The notes below the pieces were generated by a model. That model made no database searches and was not told the origin of the DNA. It saw only the letters and a program-made list of their open reading frames with translations. Shown one piece after another: positions 2,039 to 49,945 of a stretch of DNA of 64,000 nt. The stretch is from IMG/VR virus record IMGVR_UViG_3300021164_000690; one strand, 5' to 3'. This DNA is from an uncultured virus (IMG/VR IMGVR_UViG_3300021164_000690) (Duplodnaviria; Heunggongvirae; Uroviricota; Caudoviricetes). How positions within the stretch are numbered: position 1 is the first letter of the stretch; the number at the start of each line of letters is the position of its first letter. The position numbers were made by a program, and so were the translations under genes.

Positions 2039-2066
2039 GTTCTGCTCCTAAGTTGCTATAGTATAT

Positions 2067-2095
2067 ATTATAACACCGCCCGAAGGCGGTGTCAA
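2067..2095 (-). promoter_or_regulatory. sigma70 consensus promoter with hairpin in spacer
   Basis: TTGACA-ccgccttcgggcggtgt(17)-TATAAT; SD AGGAG before ATG 2038. Confidence 0.9.
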
Positions 2096-2105
2096 TCGGT
2101 TTATT

Positions 2106-6754: not shown

Positions 6755-7203
6755 TTTACCTCTGCTTTTCCGTCTGCAAGTTTACTTACGTTAATGTAGC
6801 CAGCACCTCTAGAAGCATCCTGACCTTCATCGCTTAATATGTTACGAGCTAAGTCTCTAAACCAGCGATCCACAATTTCTTCATCTGGATCACCGTCATA
6901 ACCATATCCTTCTTGCTTTAATTGTACTACAAAAGCAGCGTTCCAGTCAAGCTCAAAAAAGCCGTTTCTTACATTATCTTTGTTTACATGAGTATCCAAA
7001 ACGGAAACCCAAGGTTCGCCTTTACGTGTAGCACGTTCTTTTGGAGTCAATTTGGCAAGCTCTGCTTTGGCTTCTGCGTCTGCGGCTTCTTTCAATTTTT
7101 GTTCTGTTAACTTTTGAGCAACTGCCGCCTCAGCTTTTGCCATTGCTGTTGCATCTTCAATTGCTTTAATTCCAGTAATTTTCTTTATAAAGTCTTTAAT
7201 CAT
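6751..7203 (-). CDS. hypothetical phage protein
   Basis: 150 aa ORF with coupled overlaps. Confidence 0.75.
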   Translation of the reverse strand: MIKDFIKKITGIKAIEDATAMAKAEAAVAQKLTEQKLKEAADAEAKAELAKLTPKERATRKGEPWVSVLDTHVNKDNVRNGFFELDWNAAFVVQLKQEGYGYDGDPDEEIVDRWFRDLARNILSDEGQDASRGAGYINVSKLADGKAEVK

Positions 7204-7748
7204 TTTATCGTTTCCATATGATATGTTAATGTTTCTAACGGGAATATTGGACTAATTTTATTCTCGTAAAATTCTAAATTTGATTCAGCAAATGGTATTA
7301 ACAATTTTTGGAACCAAGTTTGATCAATTCCTTCGTTAAATGTTTTGCGATGCATTTTAAATTTACAAGGACTATATGCATATCTTTCATGATATGTATG
7401 TCCTTTTACAAAATAGCTCAATGTATCTACTGTAAAAAAGTGAACATGTGTTGGATCAACGCAGGCCCATTTACTGCGGAAATACGGCACAATAATAGTA
7501 ACAGTAGCACCTGGTTTGGTTATGCGATGAATTTCTTCCATTGTTTTAACAATGTTGTTTAAATGTTCTAATACATTGTCTAAATGTACAACATCAAACT
7601 CACCACTCTCAAACGGCCATGGAAATACATCTAAGTTGTGTACTACATCAGCACCAACATTTTCGTTAATGTCTACAGTAACAATAGTATCTCCAGGATT
7701 TCCTGGACGTTCTTTCTTACCACATCCGAGTACTAGTAATTTTGCCAT
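7200..7748 (-). CDS. class I SAM-dependent methyltransferase (type 11-like)
   Basis: VLGCG motif I, FD-x-V...VLEHL, EIHRITKPG; start overlaps queE stop. Confidence 0.85.
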   Translation of the reverse strand: MAKLLVLGCGKKERPGNPGDTIVTVDINENVGADVVHNLDVFPWPFESGEFDVVHLDNVLEHLNNIVKTMEEIHRITKPGATVTIIVPYFRSKWACVDPTHVHFFTVDTLSYFVKGHTYHERYAYSPCKFKMHRKTFNEGIDQTWFQKLLIPFAESNLEFYENKISPIFPLETLTYHMETIK

Positions 7749-8614
7749 TAGGTACCCCACTCATTTTTAAATAGTGGCACTTGTAATCTGTCACTATAAC
7801 GCCATCCACGTTTCATAGCAAGATCGGCCACCTTACGATTGTTTAATGCATACACACTTTCTACACCGCCAACTGGCATTAGATAAACATGTCCAGTGAA
7901 ACCTGCTTTACGATATTCTTCAGTAGCACGTTCTGCATCGGCAAAGTCTTGTTCTGTAGCAATAACAAATTTTAAATATGCTGTACCATACTCTTCGTAC
8001 TCACATACAATCTCAGGACAGATTGCTTCTTCCCACTTCTCGCCACTACAAGGAAGTTTAGCACTTACACTAAATGTAATCTCACGCCAAAAATCTTGAT
8101 CATGATGACTTTTCCAAGTATGCAAATATGAAGCAAATTCTGGAGTTAATTTTTGAGTACCGTTTGTTTCAAAAGTAATTTCTCTAAGACGCCACATACT
8201 AGGATGATCTAACAAATCTGGATAAGCACGTTGCCAACCTAACAACGGCTCTCCGCCTGTAATAACTAGATGCTCATCTTCCCAACGCTTGTGCGGAAGT
8301 ATCTCCATAATACGATTTACAATAGCGTTACTTTCTAACATTGGACTTAGATCTTTAAACTCTGGCATCCATGATGCATAGCTGTCACAACCTGTGCTTA
8401 CAAGCGGCAAGTCTTCATACTTTTGAAAAGACTCAATCATTTTGTGTGTTGCCGCAATGTCAGTAGCTTCGTGACTGACTTCACCACGTGGCATGCCAAA
8501 GCCTGCGCATTTAAAGTTACACCCAAATGTACGCAGAAACACAGACGGGACACCCATGTAGCGTCCTTCACCTTGGATACTGTAAAACAGTTCCGCTATT
8601 TTAATTTTACTCAT
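7748..8614 (-). CDS. queE: 7-carboxy-7-deazaguanine synthase (radical SAM)
   Basis: ELFYSIQGEG, VFLRTFGCNFKC...CDS, ITGGEPLL, ETNGT, VSAK, LKFV, YLMP, RLQ. Confidence 0.9.
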   Translation of the reverse strand: MSKIKIAELFYSIQGEGRYMGVPSVFLRTFGCNFKCAGFGMPRGEVSHEATDIAATHKMIESFQKYEDLPLVSTGCDSYASWMPEFKDLSPMLESNAIVNRIMEILPHKRWEDEHLVITGGEPLLGWQRAYPDLLDHPSMWRLREITFETNGTQKLTPEFASYLHTWKSHHDQDFWREITFSVSAKLPCSGEKWEEAICPEIVCEYEEYGTAYLKFVIATEQDFADAERATEEYRKAGFTGHVYLMPVGGVESVYALNNRKVADLAMKRGWRYSDRLQVPLFKNEWGT

Positions 8615-9000
8615 ACACAATCCTGTTCTTTTGCCATTTTTGTTATTATAGCACGTTCTTCTTTATTTTGTCTAGTATTACGAAACTCTTTAACGTCTGC
8701 TGATGCAGTTACAAGAGTTTGAGCATAATTAATTGTTTGTTGCTCTTTCAAACAAATAGTCGATTCGGTATCAATATACCCTTTGGTAAGTAATGTCCAA
8801 ATATGTGTCCAGCGTGACTTTGACCAAAAGTTTGTTCTAGTAGTAACATAGATGTTAACAGAAATACCTGTATCATCAGACTCTACCCAGACATTGTGAT
8901 CACAATCTGTATTAGAACATTCGCAAGCAACTCGATAAACTTTTGAATCGCCCCAATCGTTTTGCTTCAAAATACCTTCTGCTGGAGTTTGGGCTTTCAT
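8611..9000 (-). CDS. hypothetical protein (CxC...C-x-H cluster)
   Basis: 129 aa ORF, coupled overlaps. Confidence 0.7.
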   Translation of the reverse strand: MKAQTPAEGILKQNDWGDSKVYRVACECSNTDCDHNVWVESDDTGISVNIYVTTRTNFWSKSRWTHIWTLLTKGYIDTESTICLKEQQTINYAQTLVTASADVKEFRNTRQNKEERAIITKMAKEQDCV

Positions 9001-9329
9001 TGTTTGAACATCTCTAAATTAATAATTTTAGCAACACGCTCACCGACATTTTCACCAGTGGGAATAACATAAGTTTGTTGATCGTGTCGATCCTTACGGT
9101 CATCATAATGTCGAACATTGAGAATCTTACCACCAACTGCATTGCTTAGTTCAAATGTAATGCGACCTTCGCCTTCTGCACGGCCACGTTCTACCATTGC
9201 TGTTCCCATACCAATTGCCATTTTATGTTTATCCTGTAACCATACTGTTGAATTTATTTGATCGTAGTGGTCTCTATTTTCCCACATGTCTCGAACTTTG
9301 GTATATAACCATTTATCAAACCATTTCAT
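8997..9329 (-). CDS. hypothetical protein
   Basis: 110 aa ORF, coupled overlaps. Confidence 0.7.
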   Translation of the reverse strand: MKWFDKWLYTKVRDMWENRDHYDQINSTVWLQDKHKMAIGMGTAMVERGRAEGEGRITFELSNAVGGKILNVRHYDDRKDRHDQQTYVIPTGENVGERVAKIINLEMFKQ

Positions 9330-9544
9330 TCTACATCTTCCTCAAACCATTCGTCAACCATTGTTTCTGCTTCGTCTTGCGTTAACGCCGGAACAAAAAT
9401 ACGTGCTGGATGTCCAACTGTATGTTGTATATCAAATTTAACCACACCTGCTGGTATGTGATCGAATTCTCTCTCTACAATAAATTCTTGTAAATTCTTT
9501 GCACGGAAAATTAATTGATCAGTTAAGTCTTTAGCTGTTGTCAT
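9326..9544 (-). CDS. hypothetical protein
   Basis: 72 aa ORF, coupled overlaps. Confidence 0.7.
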   Translation of the reverse strand: MTTAKDLTDQLIFRAKNLQEFIVEREFDHIPAGVVKFDIQHTVGHPARIFVPALTQDEAETMVDEWFEEDVE

Positions 9545-10311
9545 CTTGGGGCAAACTCCTGTTGTAATTTAATGTTATCAAAAAACTCTTTCTTAGCACC
9601 TGGATCAGTTTTAAATGAACCAGTAAGTACAGTTGTCTGTGTTAATGAACTATGTGCCATAATGCCGCGATTCTCACAGCAACCGTGTGTTGCTTGAATG
9701 TATACTGCTACGTTTTTGGAATTTGTTGCTCGGCTGATTTCCCTAGCAATGTCATTGCAAAGTTCCTCCTGGAGAGTACCTCGACGGGCACACCACTGAG
9801 CGATCCTTGTATACTTGCTAAGTCCGATGAGTTTCTCAGCCGCAATAATACCAATATAAGCAACGCCAGTAACGGGTTGGTGATGATGGCTACACATACT
9901 GCGAAGCTCGCTACGAACAACCAGCATGCCTTCATAACGGTCCGCCGAATCATTTGGAAAACATGTTGCGTCTGGTGCTGATTCATATCTACCTGCCATA
10001 ATTTCGTTAAAATACATCTTAGCAAGTCTACGTGCTGTGCCTTTGCTATTAGGATCGTTTTCTCTATCAATAAGTAAACTATCAAGCACTTGCTCAAATG
10101 CAGGTGTTGCTTCGTCAATTAATTTTTCTATATCACCTTCGTGCAAGTATTCACTGATGTTATCACCTGCCCAAAAACGTTTACCTTCACGTTTCATCTT
10201 AAAACGAATATGATCGCCTAAGTATGCTTCTTTGTAATCTTTGTTGTCGTCGCCTTGTTGTTCTGCACCGGTAAGTGCGTTCTTCAAGTCTTCTGTTGTA
10301 AATGTTGTCAA
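9541..10311 (-). CDS. folE: GTP cyclohydrolase I
   Basis: T-x-x-RLAKMY, SMCSHH, GLSKY-x-R, LQE, HGC-x-x-NRG; TTG start with GGAG SD. Confidence 0.95.
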   Translation of the reverse strand: MTTFTTEDLKNALTGAEQQGDDNKDYKEAYLGDHIRFKMKREGKRFWAGDNISEYLHEGDIEKLIDEATPAFEQVLDSLLIDRENDPNSKGTARRLAKMYFNEIMAGRYESAPDATCFPNDSADRYEGMLVVRSELRSMCSHHHQPVTGVAYIGIIAAEKLIGLSKYTRIAQWCARRGTLQEELCNDIAREISRATNSKNVAVYIQATHGCCENRGIMAHSSLTQTTVLTGSFKTDPGAKKEFFDNIKLQQEFAPR

Positions 10312-10334
10312 GTTAATTCTCCGATCATTTGTAC

Positions 10335-10363
10335 ATTATATAGATTATTTAGGCAAATGTCAA
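10335..10363 (-). promoter_or_regulatory. sigma70 consensus promoter for the folE-queE unit
   Basis: TTGACA-17 bp-TATAAT; spacer also contains TAAATA. Confidence 0.85.
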
Positions 10364-10467
10364 CTAAAGTATCCATAAGATACAACAAACCCTATACCAA
10401 ACCAGAAAATTACATATTCTAACCAATATTTTTCAAGTAAATTTTCTATCTTATTTTTAAGAGTCAT
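10360..10467 (-). CDS. small membrane peptide (35 aa, not in ORF track)
   Basis: MTLKNKIENLLEKYWLEYVIFWFGIGFVVSYGYFS; fills the intergenic gap, GGA SD. Confidence 0.55.
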   Translation of the reverse strand: MTLKNKIENLLEKYWLEYVIFWFGIGFVVSYGYFS

Positions 10468-10479
10468 ATGTTGTTTCCA

Positions 10480-10677
10480 TCAAATTATGTTGCGATCTTT
10501 TTTATAGTTTTCGTAGTGCCGCTTGCGGCATTCTTCTTTAACTGATTGCGGAATATCTGGATGCCATTCTGCCATTCCGCAATCGTAATATCTACCTTGA
10601 GGTTGATTTTGTATAATCATATATCCAAAGATACTCAATATTGTAACGGCAAGTATGACAATGATAATATCCTTCAT
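10480..10677 (-). CDS. small membrane-anchored hypothetical protein
   Basis: N-terminal TM helix, YYDC...HPD...EEC. Confidence 0.7.
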   Translation of the reverse strand: MKDIIIVILAVTILSIFGYMIIQNQPQGRYYDCGMAEWHPDIPQSVKEECRKRHYENYKKDRNII

Positions 10678-10883
10678 AGTCGTTCGCTCAAAAGTATACG
10701 ACATAAATCAGCATCTTTTTTATTTTTAAATGTAAAGGTCATGCAATCTTCTTCAGGATGAGATTCGTATCTGTTTCCAGGCAATCCAAATACTTCTAGT
10801 ACTAGAGCACATGTTTCATTCCACCAAAAACCATTTTGGTTGTCCCATAATACTGCTACTTGATTCTCATTTGTCGCTAACAC
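10674..10883 (-). CDS. hypothetical protein
   Basis: ORF; likely GTG start at 10883 with AAGGA SD. Confidence 0.65.
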   Translation of the reverse strand: MLATNENQVAVLWDNQNGFWWNETCALVLEVFGLPGNRYESHPEEDCMTFTFKNKKDADLCRILLSERL

Positions 10884-11247
10884 GATAGTTTCCTTTTTCT
10901 GGAATAACATGTCTAACACCTCCACGTGGATCTTCCATATCACCCTTGCGTCTAGGAATCATATGTACATGTGGATACATTATTGTTTGTCCAGCAGCCT
11001 CGCCACAGTTTTGTCCGACATTAAAAGCGTCCCACCTGCCCGACTCGACGCCCATGTAACCAAATTTGTATGCGGCTTTGTAACAATCCCAGAGATGGTC
11101 CCAGTCTTCTTTGGTAGGCACAAATAACAGATGTCCTTCCGTAACTGGGTATGCATCTCGGAAGACCCAATAGTCTTTAGTTCGGTATTCAATACCGGTC
11201 CACGGTGCTCGTTTTTCATCAAGTGCCCTTTCAATATCAGTTGTCAT
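10867..11247 (-). CDS. HIT family nucleotide hydrolase
   Basis: DAYPVTEGHLLFVPT, AAGQTI-x-x-PHVHMIPR (first triad His replaced by Tyr). Confidence 0.9.
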   Translation of the reverse strand: MTTDIERALDEKRAPWTGIEYRTKDYWVFRDAYPVTEGHLLFVPTKEDWDHLWDCYKAAYKFGYMGVESGRWDAFNVGQNCGEAAGQTIMYPHVHMIPRRKGDMEDPRGGVRHVIPEKGNYRVSDK

Positions 11248-11788
11248 TGCGCCAAAACTCTTCCCAAGGATAAACTAACCAACAGTCCTCTTCTGCTTTG
11301 TTGACTTCCCAAACAGAGTAGTCAACAGTTTCTTTACTTGCCATATTGTTAGTTAGTGTAGCAAATCGAACATTGCCTCCCCACACGTGATTCCAAAAAT
11401 CGTGATCGGGATGACAGCCACTTGGCCAGTCTTGTTTGATCCAGGCAATAGTGCTACCTTGATCATTAATGTCGTCTACAATAAGAATTTTTTTTCTGTA
11501 AGCCGGATCAACAAACGTGCCAGTGGATTCTCGTATTTCACTAGGGACACAACCAAATGCATCTTCAGCCATGCCTAAGTCGCTTACACAATCTCCACCA
11601 TCACGTAAACTTACTTGTAATGGACGCATGGGAATTCCCATATATTGACTAAGCAGTACTGCTGGCACAGCACCGCCACGTGTGATACCTACAATATAAT
11701 CTGGACGCCAGTTGTCTTGCTGTAGCTGTCTAGCAATATCTAAACAAGCACCTTCAATTTGACTCCAGCTATAGTAAACCTTTTTCAT
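11237..11788 (-). CDS. purine phosphoribosyltransferase (Gpt-like type I PRTase)
   Basis: IVGITRGG, ILIVDDINDQGST PRPP loop, C-terminal WLVYPWE. Confidence 0.9.
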   Translation of the reverse strand: MKKVYYSWSQIEGACLDIARQLQQDNWRPDYIVGITRGGAVPAVLLSQYMGIPMRPLQVSLRDGGDCVSDLGMAEDAFGCVPSEIRESTGTFVDPAYRKKILIVDDINDQGSTIAWIKQDWPSGCHPDHDFWNHVWGGNVRFATLTNNMASKETVDYSVWEVNKAEEDCWLVYPWEEFWRNDN

Positions 11789-11796
11789 TAAGTGCC

Positions 11797-12024
11797 TTAC
11801 TGTAAATTACGATTATCATCTTCTTCTGAACGCATAATTGCTTCAACAATGTCTTCATCTAAATCTTCTATATCTACCTCATGGGAGTTTTCTTCAAGTT
11901 CTCCACTTTTGAACATACGATGAATTTCAGAAACAAGTTCGTCAAGTTCTTCTTGTGTGCCATCAAAATTATCAAAGCAGCCTGGTGCAAATTCGATTTT
12001 AGTTGCTTTTGGTTTATCAGTCAT
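11797..12024 (-). CDS. small acidic hypothetical protein
   Basis: ORF from ATG 12024, FAPGCFDNFDGTQEELDEL. Confidence 0.7.
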   Translation of the reverse strand: MTDKPKATKIEFAPGCFDNFDGTQEELDELVSEIHRMFKSGELEENSHEVDIEDLDEDIVEAIMRSEEDDNRNLQ

Positions 12025-12385
12025 GATCGCCTTTAATTGATTCAAATGTTCTATACTTACCCAATGCATTTATGTATTCGTCATACATCTTTTTTAGTTT
12101 TGGATATTTCTTTTCAAGTATAACATCTCTTTCAGGAATTTGCAAGACTTTTTCAATTGTGTTTAACCGTTCTTCCAAGTCACGGCCGTTAATAACCATT
12201 CGACCTTTAACTTCTAATTCTGGCGGAGTTTGTTTAACAATCATAACATTGTCATTTGGATTAGTCCACGTTGTACCGTTAGACCCACTTGTTAAAAACT
12301 GTCCTGATGTATTGGTAGTTGTATAAACGTAGCCACCACTAGTAGTATTAGCTATGTTGTTTGCGTTCTTCAAGATATAGCTCAT
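12017..12385 (-). CDS. hypothetical protein (T/S-rich N-terminus)
   Basis: ORF; C-terminal KKYPKLKKMYDEY. Confidence 0.7.
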   Translation of the reverse strand: MSYILKNANNIANTTSGGYVYTTTNTSGQFLTSGSNGTTWTNPNDNVMIVKQTPPELEVKGRMVINGRDLEERLNTIEKVLQIPERDVILEKKYPKLKKMYDEYINALGKYRTFESIKGDHD

Positions 12386-12803
12386 TATGTATCCATTTAT
12401 TTTTAACAAGGAATCCCCATTCTTGTTTTTGTGGACCTGGCATGAACAATGTCCACGCAGTTACGTTAGGATCAAGCTCAATACGATGATAGCTGTTAGC
12501 ACTACATATACGAAAATGTCCTGGACCTCGCCATTTACACATTTCACCTGACATATTACCTTGCTCGTCAAATAACGGAATCCATTCATAGTATCCGCCT
12601 TTTAAAATCAGTGTAGCATAAGGCCACGGATGATCATGTACATCGCCAGGATCTGACTGATGAAACTTGTGTAAAAATATGTTAAACGGAAACCAGTTAC
12701 GATCCTTTAGGAACAAATAGTAACGTGTGATAAGTGGAGCACCGTTTTGGCGATCCATAATAATACGTTTACGTCCAATGTGTTCTAAAAATTTAAGAAG
12801 CAT
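12348..12803 (-). CDS. cupin-fold protein
   Basis: HDHPW...ILKGGYYE...HRIEL...WTLF metal-binding cupin pattern. Confidence 0.7.
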   Translation of the reverse strand: MLLKFLEHIGRKRIIMDRQNGAPLITRYYLFLKDRNWFPFNIFLHKFHQSDPGDVHDHPWPYATLILKGGYYEWIPLFDEQGNMSGEMCKWRGPGHFRICSANSYHRIELDPNVTAWTLFMPGPQKQEWGFLVKNKWIHNELYLEERKQHS

Positions 12804-13158
12804 ATTTATTGCCTTTCTTTGCTTCCCAATCGTCCTCAATCATTGCATAAGTTTGTTTGAATTTTTCAAATGCAATTTTTAAAGCAGGATATTCCTTACA
12901 CATTTTTTCAACTTCTGAGTAGCTAGGGAAACTATCAACCCATTCAATTGGTAAATTAAAACTCCAATTATCTGATCCACCAATAGTAATAGTATCTAAA
13001 GGAGAGATTGTACTAATACTTCCGCTTGCAAGTGTATAACTTCCAGCAAACACGGAAGTGTCTATAGTTACAGTATTGGCACTTGTTATTGACGACAAGT
13101 CAATTGTGTCACTGTTTAATGTTATTGAGTAAGTCTCTGGCGCTAAAGAACTGTTCAT
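12793..13158 (-). CDS. hypothetical protein (T/S-rich N-terminus)
   Basis: 121 aa; C-terminal KEYPALKIAFEKF. Confidence 0.7.
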   Translation of the reverse strand: MNSSLAPETYSITLNSDTIDLSSITSANTVTIDTSVFAGSYTLASGSISTISPLDTITIGGSDNWSFNLPIEWVDSFPSYSEVEKMCKEYPALKIAFEKFKQTYAMIEDDWEAKKGNKYAS

Positions 13159-14182
13159 TTAAGATATCCTTTTGTTTTCTAATTTGTGGAATCCTAGTTC
13201 TGTAATTATCCATATGCTGTATAATTTCTTTACACAAATTAGGACGATATACATTATATGCGTCCCAGCTTTCGGTCCACTTACTTGGATACTTAAATGT
13301 GTCCAAGTACATTTCTTTGTAACTTAGTCTGTCAGGAACCATTGGAATTGCATCTACAACAGTGCCTTCATAACAACTAATGCCTAATGTTTCTTGCAAA
13401 TTAGCACTAAACACTAGTTTTGCCTCACCCAATAAATTATGATATTCATTTTTAGTCAGTTGTTGATCTTGACATACGACAAATTCATATTGTGGTAAGT
13501 GTTCTTTTAAATCTCTAAAAATATTAACTTGTTTTTCTGGAGCAATACGATGTGGGAATAAGATAAGATCACGCTTGGGCATGTTCTTATACATTGTTAA
13601 CGTATCTTCCATATACTCCATGGGCCATCCTGTGCGTATAATTTTACTTTGATTAGTATAATAGTTTGGTGGAGTAAGAGTATCATGGAACAAGTTTTCA
13701 GTAAACATGTTAATATGAAACTCTGTAGCAAAGTAGTTATAATCAAATGAATGGAAGAAACTTTTCTCAGCATGTCTAACCCAAGGTTTAGCACCAACCA
13801 AGCGTCCAAGAAAGTCTTGTGGATCATATGATCCAGCATGCCATAAGCCGTGTGTAGTTACCGGAATACCTAGCAACTCACTCATGTACTTTAAGTTTAT
13901 GATACCAGGATGCCAAGCATCAGTAAAGATAAAGTGATCGCCGGAATGAACGGCTCCGTTACAAAATAAACGACCCATCTGCTCAACTTGACTAGCCTTG
14001 TATATATTAGTCCCGCCAAAGTTAAGAAACGCTCCTGGAGTGGTAGCACTAGGTATGTCCATAGGACCAGAGATAATTTGAACATTGTGTCCTGCCTTTT
14101 TAAGTAGTTTGGGTACACTAGTTTTCCATTGACCAGTGTACCGTGTGTCAACTGCTTCAAGGTCGACTAAAAAGACTTTCAT
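13109..14182 (-). CDS. GT-B glycosyltransferase (GT4-like)
   Basis: FPHRIAPEK, SANLQETLGISCYEG (E-x7-E), VPDRLSY-x-E. Confidence 0.85.
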   Translation of the reverse strand: MKVFLVDLEAVDTRYTGQWKTSVPKLLKKAGHNVQIISGPMDIPSATTPGAFLNFGGTNIYKASQVEQMGRLFCNGAVHSGDHFIFTDAWHPGIINLKYMSELLGIPVTTHGLWHAGSYDPQDFLGRLVGAKPWVRHAEKSFFHSFDYNYFATEFHINMFTENLFHDTLTPPNYYTNQSKIIRTGWPMEYMEDTLTMYKNMPKRDLILFPHRIAPEKQVNIFRDLKEHLPQYEFVVCQDQQLTKNEYHNLLGEAKLVFSANLQETLGISCYEGTVVDAIPMVPDRLSYKEMYLDTFKYPSKWTESWDAYNVYRPNLCKEIIQHMDNYRTRIPQIRKQKDILNEQFFSARDLLNNIKQ

Positions 14183-14421
14183 CAGTCTTTGAACCTTGGT
14201 TTGCTGTTAAAATTTGGATTATGTGGACGAGGATTCTTGCCCAAATAAGGTTTACGTTCACCGTTCCATGCCTTCTTAGGTCGACGGCTGTACTCAAAAT
14301 CTCGCCAATTTTGACTTTCCCTATTATAAAGGTCGGCTGGGTTATAGTTACGCAACTCAAAGCGACAAAAGTCGAGATAGTTGTCCAGGTCATCAAAAAT
14401 CTTAACGACTTCGTTTTTCAT
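14182..14421 (-). CDS. hypothetical protein
   Basis: ORF from ATG 14421 with AAGGA SD. Confidence 0.65.
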   Translation of the reverse strand: MKNEVVKIFDDLDNYLDFCRFELRNYNPADLYNRESQNWRDFEYSRRPKKAWNGERKPYLGKNPRPHNPNFNSKPRFKD

Positions 14422-14440
14422 AGGAGTATTTCCTTTAATT

Positions 14441-14836
14441 TTAGTACTTAATAAATGAACCATTTTCTCCGTCTTCGGAGACCTCAATCCAAACCTCACG
14501 GCCTGGATACTTATTGGAAATAGTGTCGTACAATTCGTCCGACATCATTTCGCAACTCTTATGATCTAGCGACAAAACACCTTGTGCGCTAGAATACAGT
14601 TGTTCAAGCCATCGCTTGAATTGTATGAATTCCACATCTCTGTCATTGTGGGTGACACTAAGCCATACCCTAAAATGGAAAATATGACGATGAGGATTAG
14701 CAAGAAACGATACATCATATTGATCTCCTGTTGCTAGGTTAGGGTCTGTTGCGGCCGCAGGATAGCAATGGATGCCTTCCTTTTGAAATGTGACCCAAAT
14801 CATTTTAAGCGGCCGTATATCTTGTTTAAGAATCAT
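14441..14836 (-). CDS. QueD/PTPS-like T-fold protein
   Basis: EGIH, HRH metal motif, SCE (equivalent to TAE), EVSEDGEN C-terminal; near folE/queE. Confidence 0.7.
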   Translation of the reverse strand: MILKQDIRPLKMIWVTFQKEGIHCYPAAATDPNLATGDQYDVSFLANPHRHIFHFRVWLSVTHNDRDVEFIQFKRWLEQLYSSAQGVLSLDHKSCEMMSDELYDTISNKYPGREVWIEVSEDGENGSFIKY

Positions 14837-15369
14837 AGTGTTGTATCTTGTGTGTACTGATCCCAATGAGTGTACTTGTCTTTACTCATCAAGCTCTGTA
14901 AGTGATGTGTCCACACACCTGGATTTGTAGCACCCCAAGTTCGGTCGTCCAGTTTAAGTGTGGCATTATAGTTGAGTTGATTAATGTAAGGTAACTTGAC
15001 ACTAATCATGGGAACAAATCGAGGATATTCGTTATATGCTGATTCCAATACACCTTCAATGTGTTCAACACCAAAGTCTAAAGTAACCCAATAGTCTGCT
15101 TTTAAACAGCCAATAATAACTTCATCCCATGCTTTATATTCTTCGTGGCTAATACTTTTAGGATTAAAACTTTGACTAGTGCCAAAGTAAATATGTTTAA
15201 TACGTTTGCTTTCGTCCAAGTATGCTTGTGTATCCCCTGCCTTACGAAGTATGTCTTCTAAAGGAGGTGTGCCTACAACAAACAAAGTGAACATGCCATG
15301 ACAAACAGTATGCTCTACTTCGTAGCCTGTAAAATATGTGACGTCTTGTCTTTGTTGTGTATCTAACAT
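14833..15369 (-). CDS. conserved hypothetical protein in modification cluster
   Basis: 178 aa, FTGYEVEHT...HIYFG...KLDD...TNPGVW; coupled to the QueD-like gene. Confidence 0.75.
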   Translation of the reverse strand: MLDTQQRQDVTYFTGYEVEHTVCHGMFTLFVVGTPPLEDILRKAGDTQAYLDESKRIKHIYFGTSQSFNPKSISHEEYKAWDEVIIGCLKADYWVTLDFGVEHIEGVLESAYNEYPRFVPMISVKLPYINQLNYNATLKLDDRTWGATNPGVWTHHLQSLMSKDKYTHWDQYTQDTTL

Positions 15370-15375
15370 GTTGTA

Positions 15376-15404
15376 AGTATATAATAATTAATATATAAAG
15401 TCAA
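15376..15404 (-). promoter_or_regulatory. sigma70-type promoter; predicted +1 coincides with ATG 15369
   Basis: TTGACT-17 bp-TATACT. Confidence 0.75.
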
Positions 15405-15412
15405 ATCCAATT

Positions 15413-16306
15413 TTACCAAAGTAAGTAGCCTCTGCTTTGATTGGCTTTTCGATTAATACTTTCTTCAAATGCTTGTTCCCACTGTGATACTCTAGGATAT
15501 GCGTTTGACCAAAATCTATCAACAATTATGTCACCGTTTTCAATCCAAGTAGCCGCATCTTGCATACATTTATAAAAACCTTCAGTTCTTGGACTAGGGA
15601 ACATAATAGTACATGCTTTCCAAAGTAAATTACCAAAATCAGTGTTTACTTGCTTTTGATTTCCAAACACAATTAACGCTTCGTTGTTTACGATTGGTTG
15701 ATCAAATACATCTGGGCCTGAACCCAAATCAATAATAACGTCAAAGGTTCCAGTGTATTCTTCAGAAAGCAGTTCTCCCCACTGACGTTTATTGCTTTTA
15801 CCTTTTACTGTGATTTCAAAATCTAAATGATTTAGTTTAATTGTATGATACGCAACCCAAGCAAGGAAGCCACTGCCTATAATCAGCAATCTCTTACCTG
15901 GCCCACTTCGTTCTGCAATTTCTCTAATGGGTTGATGAATAATATTAATCCCGCATGCTACTGGTTCTAGTATGTATTTAGGATCAGCTTCGGGTACCTT
16001 AACATATTCTCTAGCACGTACATTATATACATCCGCATACGCAGGCTCGCCACGTGTTGCCACAAGGTCTCCTACTTTAACATCAGTTACTTTATTACCA
16101 ATTTCAATAATTTGACCCAATCCTTCGTGACCATGCATATTTGATGGCAATAACGCAAACTTTCCTTGCATCATATCAATGTCACTTCTACAAATACCAG
16201 TCATAACCGCTGCTACTTGGATTTCTGTTTCTCCAGGAGGCTGTACATCGTACTTTGCTTCAAAGAAAGCACCTTTACCGTCTGTTTGTAATGTATCTAC
16301 TATCAT
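15413..16306 (-). CDS. Zn-dependent medium-chain alcohol/sugar dehydrogenase (MDR)
   Basis: GICRSD, GHEGLG, VKVGD-x-V, EPVAC, IIGSG. Confidence 0.85.
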   Translation of the reverse strand: MIVDTLQTDGKGAFFEAKYDVQPPGETEIQVAAVMTGICRSDIDMMQGKFALLPSNMHGHEGLGQIIEIGNKVTDVKVGDLVATRGEPAYADVYNVRAREYVKVPEADPKYILEPVACGINIIHQPIREIAERSGPGKRLLIIGSGFLAWVAYHTIKLNHLDFEITVKGKSNKRQWGELLSEEYTGTFDVIIDLGSGPDVFDQPIVNNEALIVFGNQKQVNTDFGNLLWKACTIMFPSPRTEGFYKCMQDAATWIENGDIIVDRFWSNAYPRVSQWEQAFEESINRKANQSRGYLLW

Positions 16307-17187
16307 AAATCTTCTATCCTTTCATGTATCCAAAAGTCTTGTTGTAATTGTTCTTGCCAAAAATTGTTGTTAGTTAGGTTTTCAATAGTATCAACAATCA
16401 TATTATGATATGCTTCTTCTGGGCACCAACCTAGTTCAAAACGTTCTACGCTACCATCTTCCATTGTAAATTTAATAGAGCTATCGTCTTCATGCATATT
16501 AGCCCAATCTGCTAGTAAAGTCCATTTATTACCAAATAACAGATGGCAACGATCATCCACATCGTATGTCCCATTAGGATTTATAGTTCCATATTCAGTA
16601 CTTTTAATATTTTCCAGATTATGACATTGTAGTGAGTGTCTTCCAGTTTGTTGTTCTTTTAGCCAGTTTGGATTCATAGCAACATAAAGACTTAGTAAGT
16701 GTGGCATTAGATCTCTACTAACTCCGCCAAACGCTAATTTTTTAGTAGTAAACCAGCTGCCTGGATTGGGAATACAATTTTTCCTACTCCAAAATATGTC
16801 TACAGTCTTTGCTTTAGCGGCTAATTCCTTTAATTCACTTATATTACTACGCCACATGTTATTTTTAACCATCATGAAGCGTGTATTGCTAAATGTTTGA
16901 ACCAATGTAGCCCAGTTTTCTGATCGAGCAACACCAGGTTTTTCAACAAATACAATTTTACTTACAGGTGCAACTCGGGTTGCAATGTCAAAATGTGTAA
17001 AGTTAGGTGTACAAATATGTACAGTATCAAACGGAGCATACAATAGTATAGCAGAATCAATACTGGGTAACATTGCACCTTTTGTAATATCCTGATCCAC
17101 AGTAATAACTTCGTGGCCAAGTTTGTCTAGCACAGATTTGTACAAGTTTCCAATACCCATACCAATGACTAGACTACGCTTGCTCAT
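16303..17187 (-). CDS. Gfo/Idh/MocA family NAD(P) oxidoreductase
   Basis: VIGMGIG, VHICTPNFTH, VFVEKP, GGV-x-x-DL-x-x-H. Confidence 0.85.
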   Translation of the reverse strand: MSKRSLVIGMGIGNLYKSVLDKLGHEVITVDQDITKGAMLPSIDSAILLYAPFDTVHICTPNFTHFDIATRVAPVSKIVFVEKPGVARSENWATLVQTFSNTRFMMVKNNMWRSNISELKELAAKAKTVDIFWSRKNCIPNPGSWFTTKKLAFGGVSRDLMPHLLSLYVAMNPNWLKEQQTGRHSLQCHNLENIKSTEYGTINPNGTYDVDDRCHLLFGNKWTLLADWANMHEDDSSIKFTMEDGSVERFELGWCPEEAYHNMIVDTIENLTNNNFWQEQLQQDFWIHERIEDL

Positions 17188-17419
17188 TTTTCTTTTCCTC
17201 GTAGGATTTAAACATTCGAGTTACCTCTTCCATGCGTTTGGCAAACACATGCGGGCTTGCTTCTGCGGCCTGCTCCATATCCCAGTCGCTAGGATAATGA
17301 CGCAAACAACTTCTAGCGCCGTCTTTAATTGCTTTTGGAACTCGAGGAGTAGTTAGAATCTCAAGTAAAAACTTTTGAGTCTGCAATACTGCTCGATATC
17401 TTTCATCAGGTAGCGTCAT
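17174..17419 (-). CDS. hypothetical phage protein (MTLPDERYRA...LRHYP)
   Basis: 81 aa ORF, overlapping neighbours. Confidence 0.75.
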   Translation of the reverse strand: MTLPDERYRAVLQTQKFLLEILTTPRVPKAIKDGARSCLRHYPSDWDMEQAAEASPHVFAKRMEEVTRMFKSYEEKKNEQA

Positions 17420-18983
17420 CTTCTTTCTCGATTTCAGTTTCTAGTTCATCAAGTTTGTTAATTTCATCTTCACTAAATTCATCGCTATGTTCAACAACTG
17501 GTTGTGCAACAACTGGAGCAGTTTCTACAACCTCAAACAAGTTTTCAAAATTTGTATGAGCATTGATAGCTTTCTTACCACTTGCGCCACGTGTACCAAT
17601 AACACGATTCCAAAAGAATCTAAATTCATCGATAACTTTTAACGCAGTACCTTTGTCGCTTGTAGCAAACAATGCTTCAACAATGTCTTTAAAGAATATC
17701 TGATCAAAACGTTCGTCAACTAACATATTAGGGCAACGACCAGCATCATATTGTCTGTTGGCTTCTTGAACAGCGTTCAAATGCATCCAAACATTATGAC
17801 CCATCATAATGCCATAACTAAAACTATCCCACGATGTTTTATTAACTTGTCCAAACTTGTTAGTATCGCCTGGGCCGTAAATGCAAATTTCATTGAGTTT
17901 AATCTGATCAATAATGGGACTAGATTCAAATACTTTTAAAATGCCATCTTGAATAACTGCGTCTTTATACAAACGTGTATCGTTAGCATACTTCTTGTCA
18001 TCAGCACTTGATGTCATTCTGTATGTCCATTTTTTACGATCTTCTGTTTCTGTTTGAATATAAATCTGTCCGTTAGCAGTTGCTAAGAACGGGCTTGCAC
18101 AGTCAAAGCTGATACTAAAGTTTTCGTTATGATGTTTGCGAACAACACGTTGAATATCTGTAAGTAATACTGCCCATTCTAATTTACTTGTACCTAAAAA
18201 GTGCATCCAATCTTGATGACCTTTTTCTAACAATCCATCAAAACGTAATTCAACTAATCGTCTTAGTACAAGCTCGACATCACACATGTTCTGGCCACCC
18301 ATACCCCAGCCATTAAATGCACGATCACCGTATTGCTTTGGATCACAATACTTTTTCATGCGATCATACCAGTCATCTGCTTGACCGTGATTCTCGCCTT
18401 GTAATACGTTTAAGAACTTGCAATTGCCGTTTCGATTATTAACAAAGTAATCATTATTAATATATGTGCCATTAACTGCATCAGCATAACTGCTAATGCC
18501 GATTAGTTTAGGACTTTCTGGATTTTTAGCAGTCCAACTTGGAATATCAAGACACATACCATAGTCCATTAAGGTATCCATCCAAGCTAAAACTTGTTTA
18601 CGCTTTTTCATTGCACGTGGACAGTTGGGATCTTTCCAATCACCAGTCCATTTGCCTTTACCAATTTGGAAACCACCAGAGTCACCTAACACCCAAGATG
18701 TATTGCGATCTCTGTTACGGAACATATCCTCTTTTGGATCAAACTTATTCAAGTCTAAGTTAGCATGTCCAGCACTATACAAGCACCAGTGATAATAAAA
18801 TGCACCCTTGTCTGGATCCAAATAGTTGAGACTCTCCGCACCGTGTGCAAATGATGGCGGAATACGAGTGGGGTCTACATAATTAAAATGACGTTGTTTA
18901 CCAACAAACGTCGAATAAAATGTCGACGTTGCTGGCAAAAACTTTGCGTAATCGCTTTGTGTAGCCGTTAAGTTTGTATTCAT
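17406..18983 (-). CDS. tRNA-guanine transglycosylase-like protein, probable DNA 7-deazaguanine insertase (DpdA-like)
   Basis: GDSGGFQ, MCLDIP, NVLQG, GWGMGG, MHFLG, SFDCAS, HN motifs of the TGT fold; near folE/queE/queD-like. Confidence 0.8.
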   Translation of the reverse strand: MNTNLTATQSDYAKFLPATSTFYSTFVGKQRHFNYVDPTRIPPSFAHGAESLNYLDPDKGAFYYHWCLYSAGHANLDLNKFDPKEDMFRNRDRNTSWVLGDSGGFQIGKGKWTGDWKDPNCPRAMKKRKQVLAWMDTLMDYGMCLDIPSWTAKNPESPKLIGISSYADAVNGTYINNDYFVNNRNGNCKFLNVLQGENHGQADDWYDRMKKYCDPKQYGDRAFNGWGMGGQNMCDVELVLRRLVELRFDGLLEKGHQDWMHFLGTSKLEWAVLLTDIQRVVRKHHNENFSISFDCASPFLATANGQIYIQTETEDRKKWTYRMTSSADDKKYANDTRLYKDAVIQDGILKVFESSPIIDQIKLNEICIYGPGDTNKFGQVNKTSWDSFSYGIMMGHNVWMHLNAVQEANRQYDAGRCPNMLVDERFDQIFFKDIVEALFATSDKGTALKVIDEFRFFWNRVIGTRGASGKKAINAHTNFENLFEVVETAPVVAQPVVEHSDEFSEDEINKLDELETEIEKEDDAT

Positions 18984-19714
18984 TACTTAGATTGAGCTGG
19001 AAGAATATAGTTGTATTCTGTAATACCACTATCAACTGTAATTTGCATAGCGCCTTGATCACTAATGCGTACTGTGCTCTTACCATCTAAGTTAAGAATA
19101 CTAATAACAGCGTTAATTGGCCATGACCATGTGTGTTTCAATTTACCAACAACATTTGGTTGGAATACAAAGTTACCAGCGTGTGTACTTGCATCACCAA
19201 AACTTACAACTAAATTGCCATTGTCTGTTTTGACTTGGAACACGTTTTCTTCTGTATGTGCAGCCGCTTGCAATTTCAAACGACTGATTGAGCTCAGTGA
19301 AGGTTCAAATTCAATGTCCCAACCGTTGCCTTTGTACTTGACGCTTTTTAACTTTTCGTTAATAACTTCAGTACTCATAAATCTATAATCGTTAACAAAG
19401 TCGCCAGTTGCATTTTCAAAGTGCAAACTTGTTGGAATATCTACGCCGTTGCGTTGACTAGTAACAACATTAATCTTTGCGTTTTCTTTATATTCTGGAT
19501 TCTTCAAGTGTAGTGCTAATTTGTCTAAGTTAGGCATACCAAATACGCCTGCAAATTCAGTAACTACCTTGTGTGTTTTAGCATTAACAATAACGCTACG
19601 GTCTTCTGCCATTGATTCAATAGTTGTTTCTCCGTTCTCACCAGAAACTTTAACTGTTGGCAAAAAGCCTAGGCTATGTGTATGTGCTACGATGTCTTGT
19701 AAAATGTTTTTCAT
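18983..19714 (-). CDS. putative sliding clamp (T4 gp45/PCNA-like)
   Basis: ~243 aa alpha/beta pattern, FGMPNLDKL, C-terminal YILPA; near polymerase; clamp loader present in window. Confidence 0.55.
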   Translation of the reverse strand: MKNILQDIVAHTHSLGFLPTVKVSGENGETTIESMAEDRSVIVNAKTHKVVTEFAGVFGMPNLDKLALHLKNPEYKENAKINVVTSQRNGVDIPTSLHFENATGDFVNDYRFMSTEVINEKLKSVKYKGNGWDIEFEPSLSSISRLKLQAAAHTEENVFQVKTDNGNLVVSFGDASTHAGNFVFQPNVVGKLKHTWSWPINAVISILNLDGKSTVRISDQGAMQITVDSGITEYNYILPAQSK

Positions 19715-19732
19715 ATGGGTCTCCAAGTTTGT

Positions 19733-19761
19733 ATTTTAACTGATATTGACGCTTGTGTCAA
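19733..19761 (-). promoter_or_regulatory. sigma70-type promoter inside the 3' end of the UGD gene
   Basis: TTGACA-17 bp-TAAAAT; TTGAC-acaagc-GTCAA inverted repeat. Confidence 0.75.
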
Positions 19762-20530
19762 CACCTTTTTTTACTTTTTTGTTGTACTCTATTACCGTTT
19801 CCAATAAATCAAATTTTTGATCTAATGAATTAATGTAATGAATAAACGCCGATGTATCTTTTGGAAAGCAATGCCCTCCCCAACCTCTTTCACCATCAGG
19901 TCCGGGAACCATGCTGTGACTTGTGCCAATTCGGTTATCTTGGCAAATTAAGTGTCTAACAATATCAAAGTCATGTCCACTTGCCTCACATATATCATAT
20001 ATGTGATTAAAGAACGATACTTTCATTGCTAAAAAACTATTTGTTGCGTATTTGATAATTGCAGCTTCTTCAATTGAACACTTGTGTACTACTAACAAGT
20101 TTGGCATTGCTCCCCTAAAAGCACAGTGCCAAAAATCCAACGGATCATCACCGCCAATAATCATATACTTTTGCTTGGCAAAATCTTCAATTGCTGACTT
20201 TGCTCTTAAAAACTCTGGACTATACGCAATGCTATGTTCAGAATATTTTTCTGTAATAGCTTTAAGTTTGTCTGGACTTACTGTGCTTTTAATTAAGATT
20301 GGCATATGAACTGGTGTTTGACTAATAACGTCTAACACGTTGCTGATATCACAATCCCCATTATCGTCACTAGGGGTATTAACACAGATAATAATTCCAG
20401 CGGCATCATAATGATCTGAAATTTTAACTTCAGTGAGTGCTGGATCAACTACTTCAGTTTCATAAGTGTATTTTAAAGCAGCCTTAACTGCCTTACCTAC
20501 AAATCCGTAACCTGCAATAATAAATTTCAT
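19736..20530 (-). CDS. ugd: UDP-glucose/GDP-mannose 6-dehydrogenase (short form lacking C-terminal domain)
   Basis: GYGFVG, ICVNTP, IKSTV, SPEFLR, KYATNSFLA-x-KVSF-x-N, GWGGHCFPKD. Confidence 0.9.
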   Translation of the reverse strand: MKFIIAGYGFVGKAVKAALKYTYETEVVDPALTEVKISDHYDAAGIIICVNTPSDDNGDCDISNVLDVISQTPVHMPILIKSTVSPDKLKAITEKYSEHSIAYSPEFLRAKSAIEDFAKQKYMIIGGDDPLDFWHCAFRGAMPNLLVVHKCSIEEAAIIKYATNSFLAMKVSFFNHIYDICEASGHDFDIVRHLICQDNRIGTSHSMVPGPDGERGWGGHCFPKDTSAFIHYINSLDQKFDLLETVIEYNKKVKKGVDTSVNIS

Positions 20531-23198: not shown

Positions 23199-23277
23199 AT
23201 CTCTCCTTATGTCATTTGCGGCTGACAAACACCCATGTTGCGGTTTATGGCCCGCCGACCTTTCCTAGCAATATTTA

Positions 23278-36710: not shown

Positions 36711-36716
36711 CATATA

Positions 36717-36748
36717 ATTATACAACATGTTGACCTACTAGTCAACAT
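36717..36748 (-). promoter_or_regulatory. sigma70-type promoter with inverted repeat over -35; predicted +1 at ATG 36710
   Basis: TTGACT-17 bp-TATAAT; atgttgac-N6-gtcaacat. Confidence 0.85.
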
Positions 36749-49942: not shown

Positions 49943-49945
49943 CAA

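Follow-up and report, generated by a model that had tools for sequence, protein, structure and literature searches.

7-Deazaguanines are the main purine series of DNA modifications, and to our knowledge all known glycosylated DNA bases are pyrimidines. The closest described route to a 7-deazaguanine without QueC is that of phage phiST, which swaps all of its G for 2'-deoxy-7-deazaguanine (dDG, [M+H]+ 267.109; 302,000 per 10^6 nucleotides in Table 1 of Cui et al. 2023, PMC10516641). According to the available portion of that article, phiST encodes FolE, QueD, QueE, a distant tRNA-guanine transglycosylase (TGT) named DpdA3 and a QueD paralog named DpdL, in which the CxxxHGH motif is changed to LxxxHRHxF and for which a role as decarboxylase of 7-carboxy-7-deazaguanine (CDG) is proposed. 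The present analysis deals with a gene island at positions 7200-20530 of a 64,000-nucleotide stretch of DNA, here called the window, from the uncultured virus IMGVR_UViG_3300021164_000690 (Caudoviricetes). The best overall explanation of this island, to which we give a probability of about 0.6, is a QueC-independent, DpdL-type 7-deazaguanine module of a jumbo phage, together with decoration by a GT4-like glycosyltransferase (GT) and a conserved protein without a family match (protein X).

Several other described systems bear on this island. The DNA of the Pseudomonas jumbo phage PA5oct (Wroclawvirus) is modified at G, as inferred by the authors of a 2025 preprint (PMC12191111). In that preprint the DNA of PA5oct was restriction-resistant, the phage was targeted by a nuclease sensing modified G, and QueE and PTPS-like genes were pointed out; the available part of the preprint reports no mass spectrometry. 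Huimycin and dapiramicin are actinomycete 7-deazapurine N2-glycosides. As far as the accessible text of PMC7439116 goes, the huimycin cluster joins FolE, QueD, QueE, a glycosyltransferase that puts N-acetylglucosamine (GlcNAc) on the 2-amino group of the free 7-deazapurine base, and an S-adenosylmethionine (SAM) methyltransferase that methylates O6. Glycosylation of a 7-deazaguanine-type base is thus enzymatically feasible, because huimycin biosynthesis does so. A further preprint (10.64898/2026.04.15.718813, seen in excerpt) places PF13439 glycosyltransferases among the decorating enzymes of huimycin-family clusters and describes a tubercidin cluster without QueC, in which CDG is used with a phosphoribosyltransferase (PRTase) and a decarboxylase.

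The window is part of a jumbo phage genome. The island adjoins a family-B DNA polymerase gene (20532-23228) whose product is 49% identical to the polymerase of Sinorhizobium phage Phosso (469 kb), 47% identical to that of Agrobacterium phage Atu_ph07 and 43% identical to those of Rak2-like phages. A megablast search with the island sequence found no match among 50,697 phage records. Family scans covered 70 open reading frames (ORFs) of the window, namely 68 of the 76 found by a greedy caller and 2 extra, with 8 small ORFs left out. In addition, 80 related IMG/VR loci were retrieved with the DpdA-like protein of the island, and every island protein was scored against each locus; all counts out of 36 given below refer to the loci that extend 6 kb or more beyond the DpdA gene on its downstream side. 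By family scans and structure searches, every class of gene that had been listed in an initial annotation of the window was found in its place and on the minus strand, and the coordinates of those genes below refer to that strand. The shared orientation of the island genes is not special, because 71 of the 76 ORFs of the whole window lie on the minus strand.

First, the core of the island contains genes for the synthesis of a deazaguanine base. FolE (GTP cyclohydrolase I, 256 aa, 9541-10311) matched PF01227 with E 7.4e-40 and NF006824 with E 3.9e-39, the latter under the curated cut-off, and is present in 34 of the 36 related loci. The QueE-like radical-SAM enzyme, a predicted CDG synthase of 290 aa (7748-8620), matched phrog_2076 over its full length (E 1.9e-49). 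Its matches to the NCBIfam QueE equivalogs were partial, at 38-52 bits against cut-offs of 200-300, and its match to Pfam Radical_SAM was under the cut-off. Residues C34, C38 and C78, which are unusually spaced, and the GGEP at 122-125 are invariant in 15 family ORFs, and the gene occurs in 30/36 related loci and in all five isolate cassettes described below.

The third core gene (14441-14866) had been called QueD-like. A gene of this kind is present in the island, but it does not encode QueD: by sequence its 141-aa product is DpdL, the QueD paralog without the catalytic Cys, and a candidate CDG decarboxylase. The motif L55-A-N-P-H59-R60-H61-I-F63 equals the published LxxxHRHxF, which replaces the CxxxHGH of QueD, and the signature residues are invariant in 41 family ORFs of the clade. 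A tblastn search with this protein against phiST fell inside CGPG_00067 (32% identity, E 1e-8), and a hidden Markov model (HMM) of the clade DpdL matched CGPG_00067 with E 3.1e-18. The gene is present in all 36 related loci. Because the QueD-like gene is DpdL and a QueC-independent dDG route has been published, the missing QueC is already explained, and the core of the island is of an already published kind. The earlier description stands in so far as this is a phage 7-deazaguanine island that encodes a DpdA-type transglycosylase and shows no QueC. CDG had also been named as the installed base; 7-deazaguanine is the more likely one, because the island encodes DpdL. That the island directs a deazaguanine DNA modification of the DpdL type is, in our estimate, highly probable.

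The Pfam families for QueC, QueF, PTPS and TGT had no match among the 70 scanned ORFs, in agreement with the earlier statement that QueC and QueF are not recognisable in the 64-kb window. Related IMG/VR contigs of 132-223 kb have CheckV completeness values of only 38-60%; the window is therefore a minority of its genome, and the absence of QueC is valid for the window and not for the genome. Contigs of the clade reach 365 kb. Among five related partial genomes, QueF was found in none and true PTPS (QueD) genes were found far from the island in two. A QueC-like gene was found in one relative (G005, at 1054-1692 of locus L084, about 80 kb from the G005 island); its 212-aa PP-loop product matched only the C-terminus of QueC, with 31 bits, and the other four contigs had no such gene. 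The nearest record (G001), a fragment of 49.6 kb, gave no TGT Pfam match.

Two side observations may be added to this account of the core. The cassette of phage BUDD has a 164-aa gene labelled as 'PAPS reductase family' (PP-loop) between FolE and GT (L087, 7374-7868), a hint at activation of the CDG carboxylate in some of the cassettes that carry GT. A 2x[4Fe-4S] ferredoxin (DUF3470 and Fer4) is encoded at 41226-41549 of the window, beside a clamp loader, and could act as reductant for the radical-SAM QueE.

Second, the product of 17406-18983 (525 aa) is, judging from its modelled fold and from profile comparisons, a divergent member of the TGT superfamily and a putative DpdA-type enzyme. The initial call of a TGT/DpdA-like gene was borne out by fold, motifs and hhalign, even though the protein had no Pfam match (including PF01702) at E<=5 and no PADLOC match at E<=1. 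A profile of 56 DpdA-like homologs found no TGT among PDB sequences, and a direct BLASTP comparison with the neighbour of GT in Acidovorax phage ACP17 was not significant. Because curated sequence models gave no match, membership in the family rests on fold and profile-profile comparison.

The AlphaFold2 (AF2) model of the DpdA-like protein has a pLDDT of 90.5. In a Foldseek search of the PDB the top 50 matches to this model were all tRNA-guanine transglycosylases, the best being 1q2r (E 2.5e-7, TMt 0.50). A VIA search, which is independent of Foldseek, gave ArcTGT at Z 17.4 (root-mean-square deviation (rmsd) 4.5, 294 aligned residues), QTRT2 at Z 16.1, TGT at 15.4, the DNA preQ0 insertase DpdA 7ui4 at 14.8 (308 aligned) and Cap10 at 13.6, with generic TIM barrels at 11.8 or less. 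The protein contains the motifs DSGGFQ (101-106) and HFLG (261-264) and a motif at D294; in the alignment with the ACP17 protein their counterparts are DSGGLQ, HLLG and SYD. Across 56 diverse homologs of 26-56% identity, D101, S102, G104, H261 and D294 do not vary; the Asp residues of the DSGGxQ and xxD motifs are presumably the catalytic ones, as in TGT enzymes. By hhalign, the family aligned with the 424-aa ACP17 gene product encoded beside GT at 96.7% (E 4e-10), with the annotated 'queuine tRNA-ribosyltransferase' of BUDD at 95.3% and with phiST DpdA3 (CGPG_00065) at 77.9% (E 1.8e-5), in this last case over 82 columns only. An exhaustive search placed 938 clusters at 50% identity in the family. 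The gene is linked to those for FolE, QueE and DpdL, and the relative PA5oct has modified G in its DNA; in this context the enzyme may act on DNA and insert a 7-deazaguanine.

Third, the gene at 13109-14182 encodes GT (357 aa), for which the initial assignment as a GT-B glycosyltransferase is confirmed by its fold. The AF2 model has a pLDDT of 80.8, and Foldseek returned glycogen synthase, BshA, PimB' and MshA, with 292 matches at E<=0.001 in total. By VIA, the model scored Z 23.1 to the sucrose-phosphate synthase (SPS) 6kih (rmsd 3.4, 310 aligned), 22.7 to BshA 3mbo and 21.7 to MshA. Scores of Z 20-23 extended across sucrose-phosphate synthase, BshA, MshA, OtsA and glycogen synthase (GT4/GT20/GT5), and 806 of 999 chains had Z>=8. 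The pair E264-x7-E272 is invariant in 32 sequences. This EX7E lies in the C-terminal domain, where we take it to be the motif of GT4-type enzymes, and the protein is accordingly described here as GT4-like (retaining-type). GT4-like enzymes move a sugar from a nucleoside diphosphate sugar (NDP-sugar) with its configuration retained. With the GT-B fold of the model and the invariant EX7E, GT looks catalytically intact.

Sequence families were of less use for this protein. No Pfam glycosyltransferase matched GT at E<=0.01: Glycos_transf_1 and Glyco_trans_4 did not match, and Glyco_transf_61 alone appeared, at E 0.084. Some GT homologs carry the JGI label 'glycosyltransferase involved in cell wall biosynthesis'. 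Searches of the PDB by sequence and by profile gave no true matches for the DpdA-like protein, GT and X, so that fold comparison and hhalign were needed for these divergent proteins. The T4 glucosyltransferases were absent among the GT structural matches listed, and the tetrahydrobiopterin glucosyltransferase 5zes was among the Foldseek matches at rank 25.

Fourth, protein X (178 aa; 14833-15369, minus strand) is a core member of the cassette. The gene is present in 36/36 related loci and in 13 of the 50,697 phage records, all of them PA5oct-group phages or ACP17 and all also with GT and DpdL. It adjoins the DpdA gene in ACP17. X had no match in Pfam, PHROG, NCBIfam, PADLOC, PDB profiles or the Atlas, and a large-database search returned only entries named 'hypothetical protein'. 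Three candidate counterparts, the Phosso 'glycosylase', a 143-aa ORF of BUDD and CGPG_00066 of phiST, were rejected at hhalign probabilities of <1%.

Lastly, GT and DpdL occur together far beyond the clade of the window. Each of GT, DpdL, X and a 105-aa gene is found in 36/36 related loci. Among the 50,697 phage records, homologs of GT are present in 22 and of DpdL in 29. DpdL is also present in 17 of the 20 GT-bearing records that were listed, and the two genes are always a few kb apart. In six lineages GT has both DpdL and a DpdA-type gene as neighbours: the clade of the window, PA5oct, ACP17, Phosso, BUDD/X1 and BCSR5. The cassettes of the isolates were confirmed by HMM, and their gene orders differ: DpdA-GT-DpdL...QueE in PA5oct, X-DpdA-GT-DpdL-QueE in ACP17, DpdL-GT...FolE...QueE in Phosso and GT-DpdA-DpdL-QueE in BUDD, while in BCSR5 GT adjoins a 446-aa gene that is followed by QueE. 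A 132-aa gene of ACP17 was also considered as DpdL and was rejected for lack of similarity; the ACP17 homolog of DpdL is instead a 127-aa gene that follows GT. The gene families are very abundant: searches with DpdA, GT and X each gave at least 8000 candidates.

Co-occurrence with DpdA had been set beforehand as a test of the sugar-related genes of the island. GT was found with it in 36/36 loci and in five isolate lineages, whereas the MDR and Gfo/Idh/MocA-type genes, with 10/36 each, turned out to be accessory. The constant company of a GT4-like transferase and X with a DpdL core, together with a Gfo-MDR-X block, appears to be undescribed. Our literature search found no description of a GT-linked DpdL cassette; the supplements of Cui et al. 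2023 and an MMBR 2024 review (PMC10966956) were beyond this search and might mention the neighbours. No later identification of the structure of the PA5oct base was found, and the MIJ3 paper was without DNA-modification content.

The remaining enzymes of the island fall into those found in most relatives and those found in few. A PRTase of the 6-oxopurine type (183 aa, 11237-11788) matched PF00156 with E 4.5e-12. Its best PDB relatives are 1vdm, a purine PRTase of Pyrococcus horikoshii (E 8e-12 over the full length), GpT of Sulfolobus and XGPRT. The gene is present in 26/36 loci and has a short homolog in the PA5oct cassette (E 3e-12), and none was found in the cassette regions of ACP17, Phosso, BUDD and BCSR5. 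A HIT-family protein (126 aa, 10867-11247; PF01230, E 2.3e-8) with invariant H93 and H95 is present in 30/36 loci. The purine PRTase and the HIT hydrolase had both been predicted, and family scans agree, as they do for the pair of MDR and Gfo/Idh/MocA-type enzymes described below. A cupin had been proposed as well. The gene is in place (12348-12839, 163 aa, HDHPWPY motif; 32/36 loci), and H68, H70 and H118 are invariant. The assignment itself is weakly supported, by phrog_4786 ('cysteine dioxygenase', E 4.4e-35) and by PDB Cupin_2 at E 0.34, so the product is termed cupin-like here.

The accessory genes include an MDR (zinc alcohol dehydrogenase-like, 297 aa, 15413-16306; ADH_N, E 9.1e-12) and a Gfo/Idh/MocA-type oxidoreductase (Gfo; 294 aa, 16303-17187; PF01408, E 4.9e-6). 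PA5oct has a homolog of the MDR, EST35_0363 (HMM E 6e-76), and a full-length Gfo homolog of 31-32% identity occurs in 11 PA5oct-group records. In PA5oct these two genes and X (EST35_0362, EST35_0363 and EST35_0364) form a Gfo-MDR-X block in the same order as in the window, about 25 kb from the PA5oct cassette, in which GT is EST35_0317 and DpdL is EST35_0318. A class-I SAM methyltransferase (186 aa, 7200-7760; Methyltransf_23, E 7.3e-10) is present in 4/36 loci, namely only in near-identical loci and L040. Its start overlaps the stop of QueE by 13 nucleotides.

The gene for a short dehydrogenase resembling UDP-glucose dehydrogenase (UGDH) lies at 19736-20530 (264 aa). It had been described as a UDP-glucose dehydrogenase, and the NAD-binding and central catalytic domains of that enzyme are indeed present (PF03721, E 3.6e-11; PF00984, E 1.1e-24). 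The C-terminal UDP-binding domain is absent, so the protein is not a complete UGDH and should not be filed as one. It aligns to residues 79-301 of the 450-aa UGDH 3gg2; GxGxxG, K160, N164, C221 and D225 are invariant, and GGHCFPKD is present. The short form is the rule in the clade, where 34 of 35 ORFs have 257-288 aa. The gene is present in 53 of the 71 loci with upstream flank, and in L045, L058 and L063 it lies elsewhere inside the island. Because the catalytic set is intact and the UDP-binding domain is absent, the sugar that the protein oxidises may be one already released from UDP. It may work like UGDH on a different substrate. Genes of this kind were also seen in Campylobacter CP220-type phages, a group reported to carry 2'-deoxy-7-amido-7-deazaguanosine (dADG), in Microbacterium phages, where the gene adjoins a glycosyltransferase, and in Bacillus phage SP-15. 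The DNA of phage SP-15 carries a glucuronate-containing hypermodification.

The island can be set against the described systems as follows. The island and phiST share FolE, QueE, DpdL with LxxxHRHxF and a distant TGT-fold transglycosylase, with no QueC in the phiST set as given in the available text of PMC10516641, and in both the cluster adjoins the DNA polymerase gene. Unlike the island, phiST is without a homolog of GT, X, PRTase, HIT, cupin, Gfo/MDR or the UGDH-like gene. Its DpdA3 has 259 aa against 525 aa here and aligns only in part, and its QueD sits in the cluster, whereas there is none in this window. PA5oct and ACP17 share with the island a DpdA-type gene, GT, DpdL, QueE and X, and PA5oct in addition shares the order of Gfo-MDR-X and a PRTase-like gene. 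However, protein identities to the window are 30-50%, the Gfo-MDR-X block of PA5oct is remote from its cassette, and ACP17 has another DpdA subfamily (424 aa) and its own QueD. The methyltransferase, cupin, HIT and UGDH-like genes were not found in the PA5oct and ACP17 cassette regions.

The likeness to systems outside this group is more distant. Huimycin and dapiramicin biosynthesis has in common with the island FolE, QueE, a glycosyltransferase and a SAM methyltransferase on a 7-deazaguanine-type base; it differs in its use of QueC and preQ0, in the lack of both DpdA and DpdL and in its product, which is a free metabolite, as described in the part of PMC7439116 available. Tubercidin shares the QueC-less route from CDG with a PRTase and decarboxylation, but its decarboxylase is of the UbiD type and not a T-fold protein, no transglycosylase is involved and the product is a free nucleoside (10.64898/2026.04.15.718813, in excerpt). 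The T4 alpha/beta-glucosyltransferases and other phage DNA glycosyltransferases, like GT, are GT-B enzymes of about 350 aa that are encoded among replication genes, and they decorate a modified base in DNA. They differ in that they act on 5-hydroxymethyl-pyrimidines, and no hydroxymethylase was seen in the family scans of the window ORFs.

From the gene identities, folds, motifs and co-occurrence described above we infer the chemical steps, the DNA target and the sugar acceptor of the following route. FolE would open GTP to give 7,8-dihydroneopterin triphosphate (H2NTP), and a QueD from another part of the genome or from the host would convert this to 6-carboxytetrahydropterin (CPH4). Ring contraction by QueE would yield CDG, from which DpdL, by analogy with phiST, may strip the carboxyl to leave 7-deazaguanine. 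The TGT-fold DpdA would then exchange guanine in phage DNA for 7-deazaguanine. The 6-oxopurine PRTase probably salvages the released guanine, or the deazaguanine base, to nucleotides. In this way it could refill the GTP pool on which FolE draws, or else attach a ribose to deazaguanine, as happens in the tubercidin route without QueC. By analogy with huimycin, the most likely role of GT and X would be to attach a sugar to deazaguanine, whether ahead of its insertion by DpdA or later, on the DNA. Further tailoring of the sugar or base in this phage would fall to the Gfo/MDR pair, the short UGDH-like dehydrogenase and the methyltransferase, and X may also act at this stage.

Several points weigh against this route. 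First, the decarboxylase activity of DpdL is proposed and is unproven in print, and dpdL with dpdA of ACP17 or of phiST gave no dDG in E. coli; the authors state that further enzymes may be required (PMC10516641, available portion). Second, no QueD (PTPS) was found in the 70 window ORFs or in the near-identical 132-kb contig (G002). Third, DpdL occurs without GT in 12 of the 29 DpdL-bearing records, which include phiST, RHph_I1_18 and others, so neither synthesis nor insertion of the base requires GT. In Vibrio phage 2.275.O a DpdA-like gene is present, and no GT or DpdL match was found. Fourth, the MDR, Gfo and methyltransferase genes are absent from most relatives. Fifth, the nearest GT structures belong to enzymes that act on small molecules and not on DNA, and the sugar acceptor is a guess because 7-deazaguanine has no obvious hydroxyl handle. 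Lastly, the 80 loci are not independent samples, several being the same phage from different metagenomes.

Taken by its parts, the reading that joins a DpdL-type module with GT/X decoration is not uniformly firm. We consider it fairly likely that GT is part of the deazaguanine pathway. The presence of a sugar-bearing deazaguanine in virion DNA is put forward only tentatively. More doubtful again is the specific proposal that the virion DNA of this abundant environmental jumbo-phage clade, PA5oct and ACP17 contains a sugar-bearing 7-deazaguanine, with the sugar N2-linked as in huimycin or C-linked to the electron-rich pyrrole ring and installed by GT and X; in that case, the sugar would be oxidised or methylated in some phages by Gfo/MDR, the short UGDH-like protein and the methyltransferase.

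If true, this would be the first glycosylated purine in any DNA, and it would account for the failed reconstitution of the ACP17 pathway from only DpdL and DpdA. Candidate genes to complete that reconstitution are GT and X, together with Gfo/MDR in phages that have them, and X is a new candidate enzyme family without a fold assignment. The cassette joins the themes of glycosylated bases and of 7-deazaguanines, and it is present in culturable phages, including the therapy candidate PA5oct. Hypermodifications of phage DNA defeat restriction and some CRISPR enzymes and supply new chemistry for nucleic-acid tools.

The alternative that survives best, which we nevertheless consider unlikely, is that the phage makes plain dDG as phiST does. 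GT, X and the redox enzymes would then serve host envelope or protein glycosylation or sugar-nucleotide metabolism and would be neighbours by chance in an early or replication block. The phiST genome reaches 100% dDG without a GT homolog, and RHph_I1_18 has QueD, FolE and DpdL without GT. The small-molecule acceptors of the nearest GT structures and the accessory nature of MDR and Gfo fit this view. So do three distant GT homologs (27% identity; PhiXhv-12), which stand in an amino-sugar context beside GlmS-like and BshB-like genes; no deazaguanine genes were found within 8 kb of the PhiXhv-12 homolog. Chance neighbourhood is opposed by the position of GT a few kb from DpdL in six otherwise unrelated lineages with differing gene orders, by its presence in every one of the 36 related loci, and by the frequency of DpdL in the listed GT-bearing records (17/20, with 22 such records in all) compared with 29/50,697 overall. 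The failure of dpdL and dpdA of ACP17 alone to give dDG likewise counts against this alternative.

A second alternative, which we rate as improbable, works at the level of nucleotides. The PRTase would make a ribonucleotide of CDG or 7-deazaguanine in the manner of tubercidin, DpdL and HIT would process it, and the polymerase would incorporate 7-deaza-dGTP, with DpdA having a minor or proofreading role. A full-length 6-oxopurine-type PRTase (26/36) and a HIT protein (30/36) do lie inside the island, the island abuts the DNA polymerase gene, and the QueC-less tubercidin cluster sets a precedent for CDG, PRTase and decarboxylase (10.64898/2026.04.15.718813, in excerpt). However, a DpdA-type gene was present in every cassette examined, the PRTase was missing from the ACP17, Phosso, BUDD and BCSR5 regions and could equally recycle released guanine, and Cui et al. 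(PMC10516641, in the part available) argue that all known cases are post-replicative.

It is very improbable that the cluster yields a free small molecule instead of a DNA base, be it a 7-deazapurine glycoside resembling huimycin or a glycoside of a pterin. The huimycin gene set (PMC7439116, available text) and the presence of tetrahydrobiopterin glucosyltransferases among the Foldseek matches of GT are in its favour. The latter match does not stand out from those to dozens of other GT-B enzymes, however, and a TGT-fold DpdA with intact catalytic Asp positions in every cassette, as well as the modification of PA5oct DNA at G (PMC12191111, available part), point to DNA. Finally, modification of tRNA (queuosine- or archaeosine-like) by the TGT-like protein is scarcely credible. 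Its best structural matches are tRNA enzymes, led by ArcTGT, but DpdA 7ui4 scores within 3 Z units of that top match, the protein is homologous to the DpdA-type gene products of ACP17 and BUDD, a scan of the window found no tRNA genes, and the relative PA5oct has restriction-resistant DNA (PMC12191111, available part).

The island also contains a number of small conserved genes in addition to those for DpdL-type base synthesis and GT/X decoration. On the minus strand, these are a BPSL0761-family protein of 81 aa (17174-17419; NF041728, E 7.3e-19, above the cut-off; 32/36 loci), the 105-aa protein with a basic C-terminus that is encoded between DpdL and GT (14182-14499), and two proteins flanking the cupin-like gene, of 130 aa (12017-12409; 34/36) and 121 aa (12793-13158; 35/36). 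The 130-aa protein has a match in PA5oct, EST35_0319 (E 6e-7), which covers its C-terminus. The caller had picked 12072-12326 on the plus strand over the overlapping 12017-12409, and the minus-strand ORF is the conserved one, with 34/36 relatives. Three small minus-strand ORFs of 129, 110 and 72 aa between FolE and QueE (8611-9544) are present in 21/36, 23/36 and 11/36 loci, respectively. The 105-, 130- and 121-aa proteins and the products of these three ORFs had no family match. An ORF at 10674-10943 (minus strand), conserved in 30/36 relatives, was overlooked by the longest-ORF caller. Between the UGDH-like gene and DpdA lies the gene for a 247-aa protein (18983-19726; phrog_12062), present in 71/71 related loci. 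Its Phosso counterpart is labelled a sliding clamp, and that of PA5oct a virion structural protein identified by electrospray ionisation tandem mass spectrometry (ESI-MS/MS).

Elsewhere in the window, family scans saw no reverse transcriptase. An Mtd_N (major tropism determinant N-terminal) domain opens two large proteins (47183-48757 and 52100-56251), and a small 2-oxoglutarate-Fe(II) oxygenase (49505-49945) is encoded between putative fibre genes. A MoxR-type AAA ATPase and a DUF2201 metallopeptidase/VWA protein form a conserved two-gene pair at 860-3197. The window also encodes a chaperone set, which consists of a ClpB-like double-AAA protein (33516-35783; AAA_2, E 5e-54), a DnaJ that has its J domain as well as C-terminal domains (35874-36728) and a Cpn10-like protein (42537-42875).

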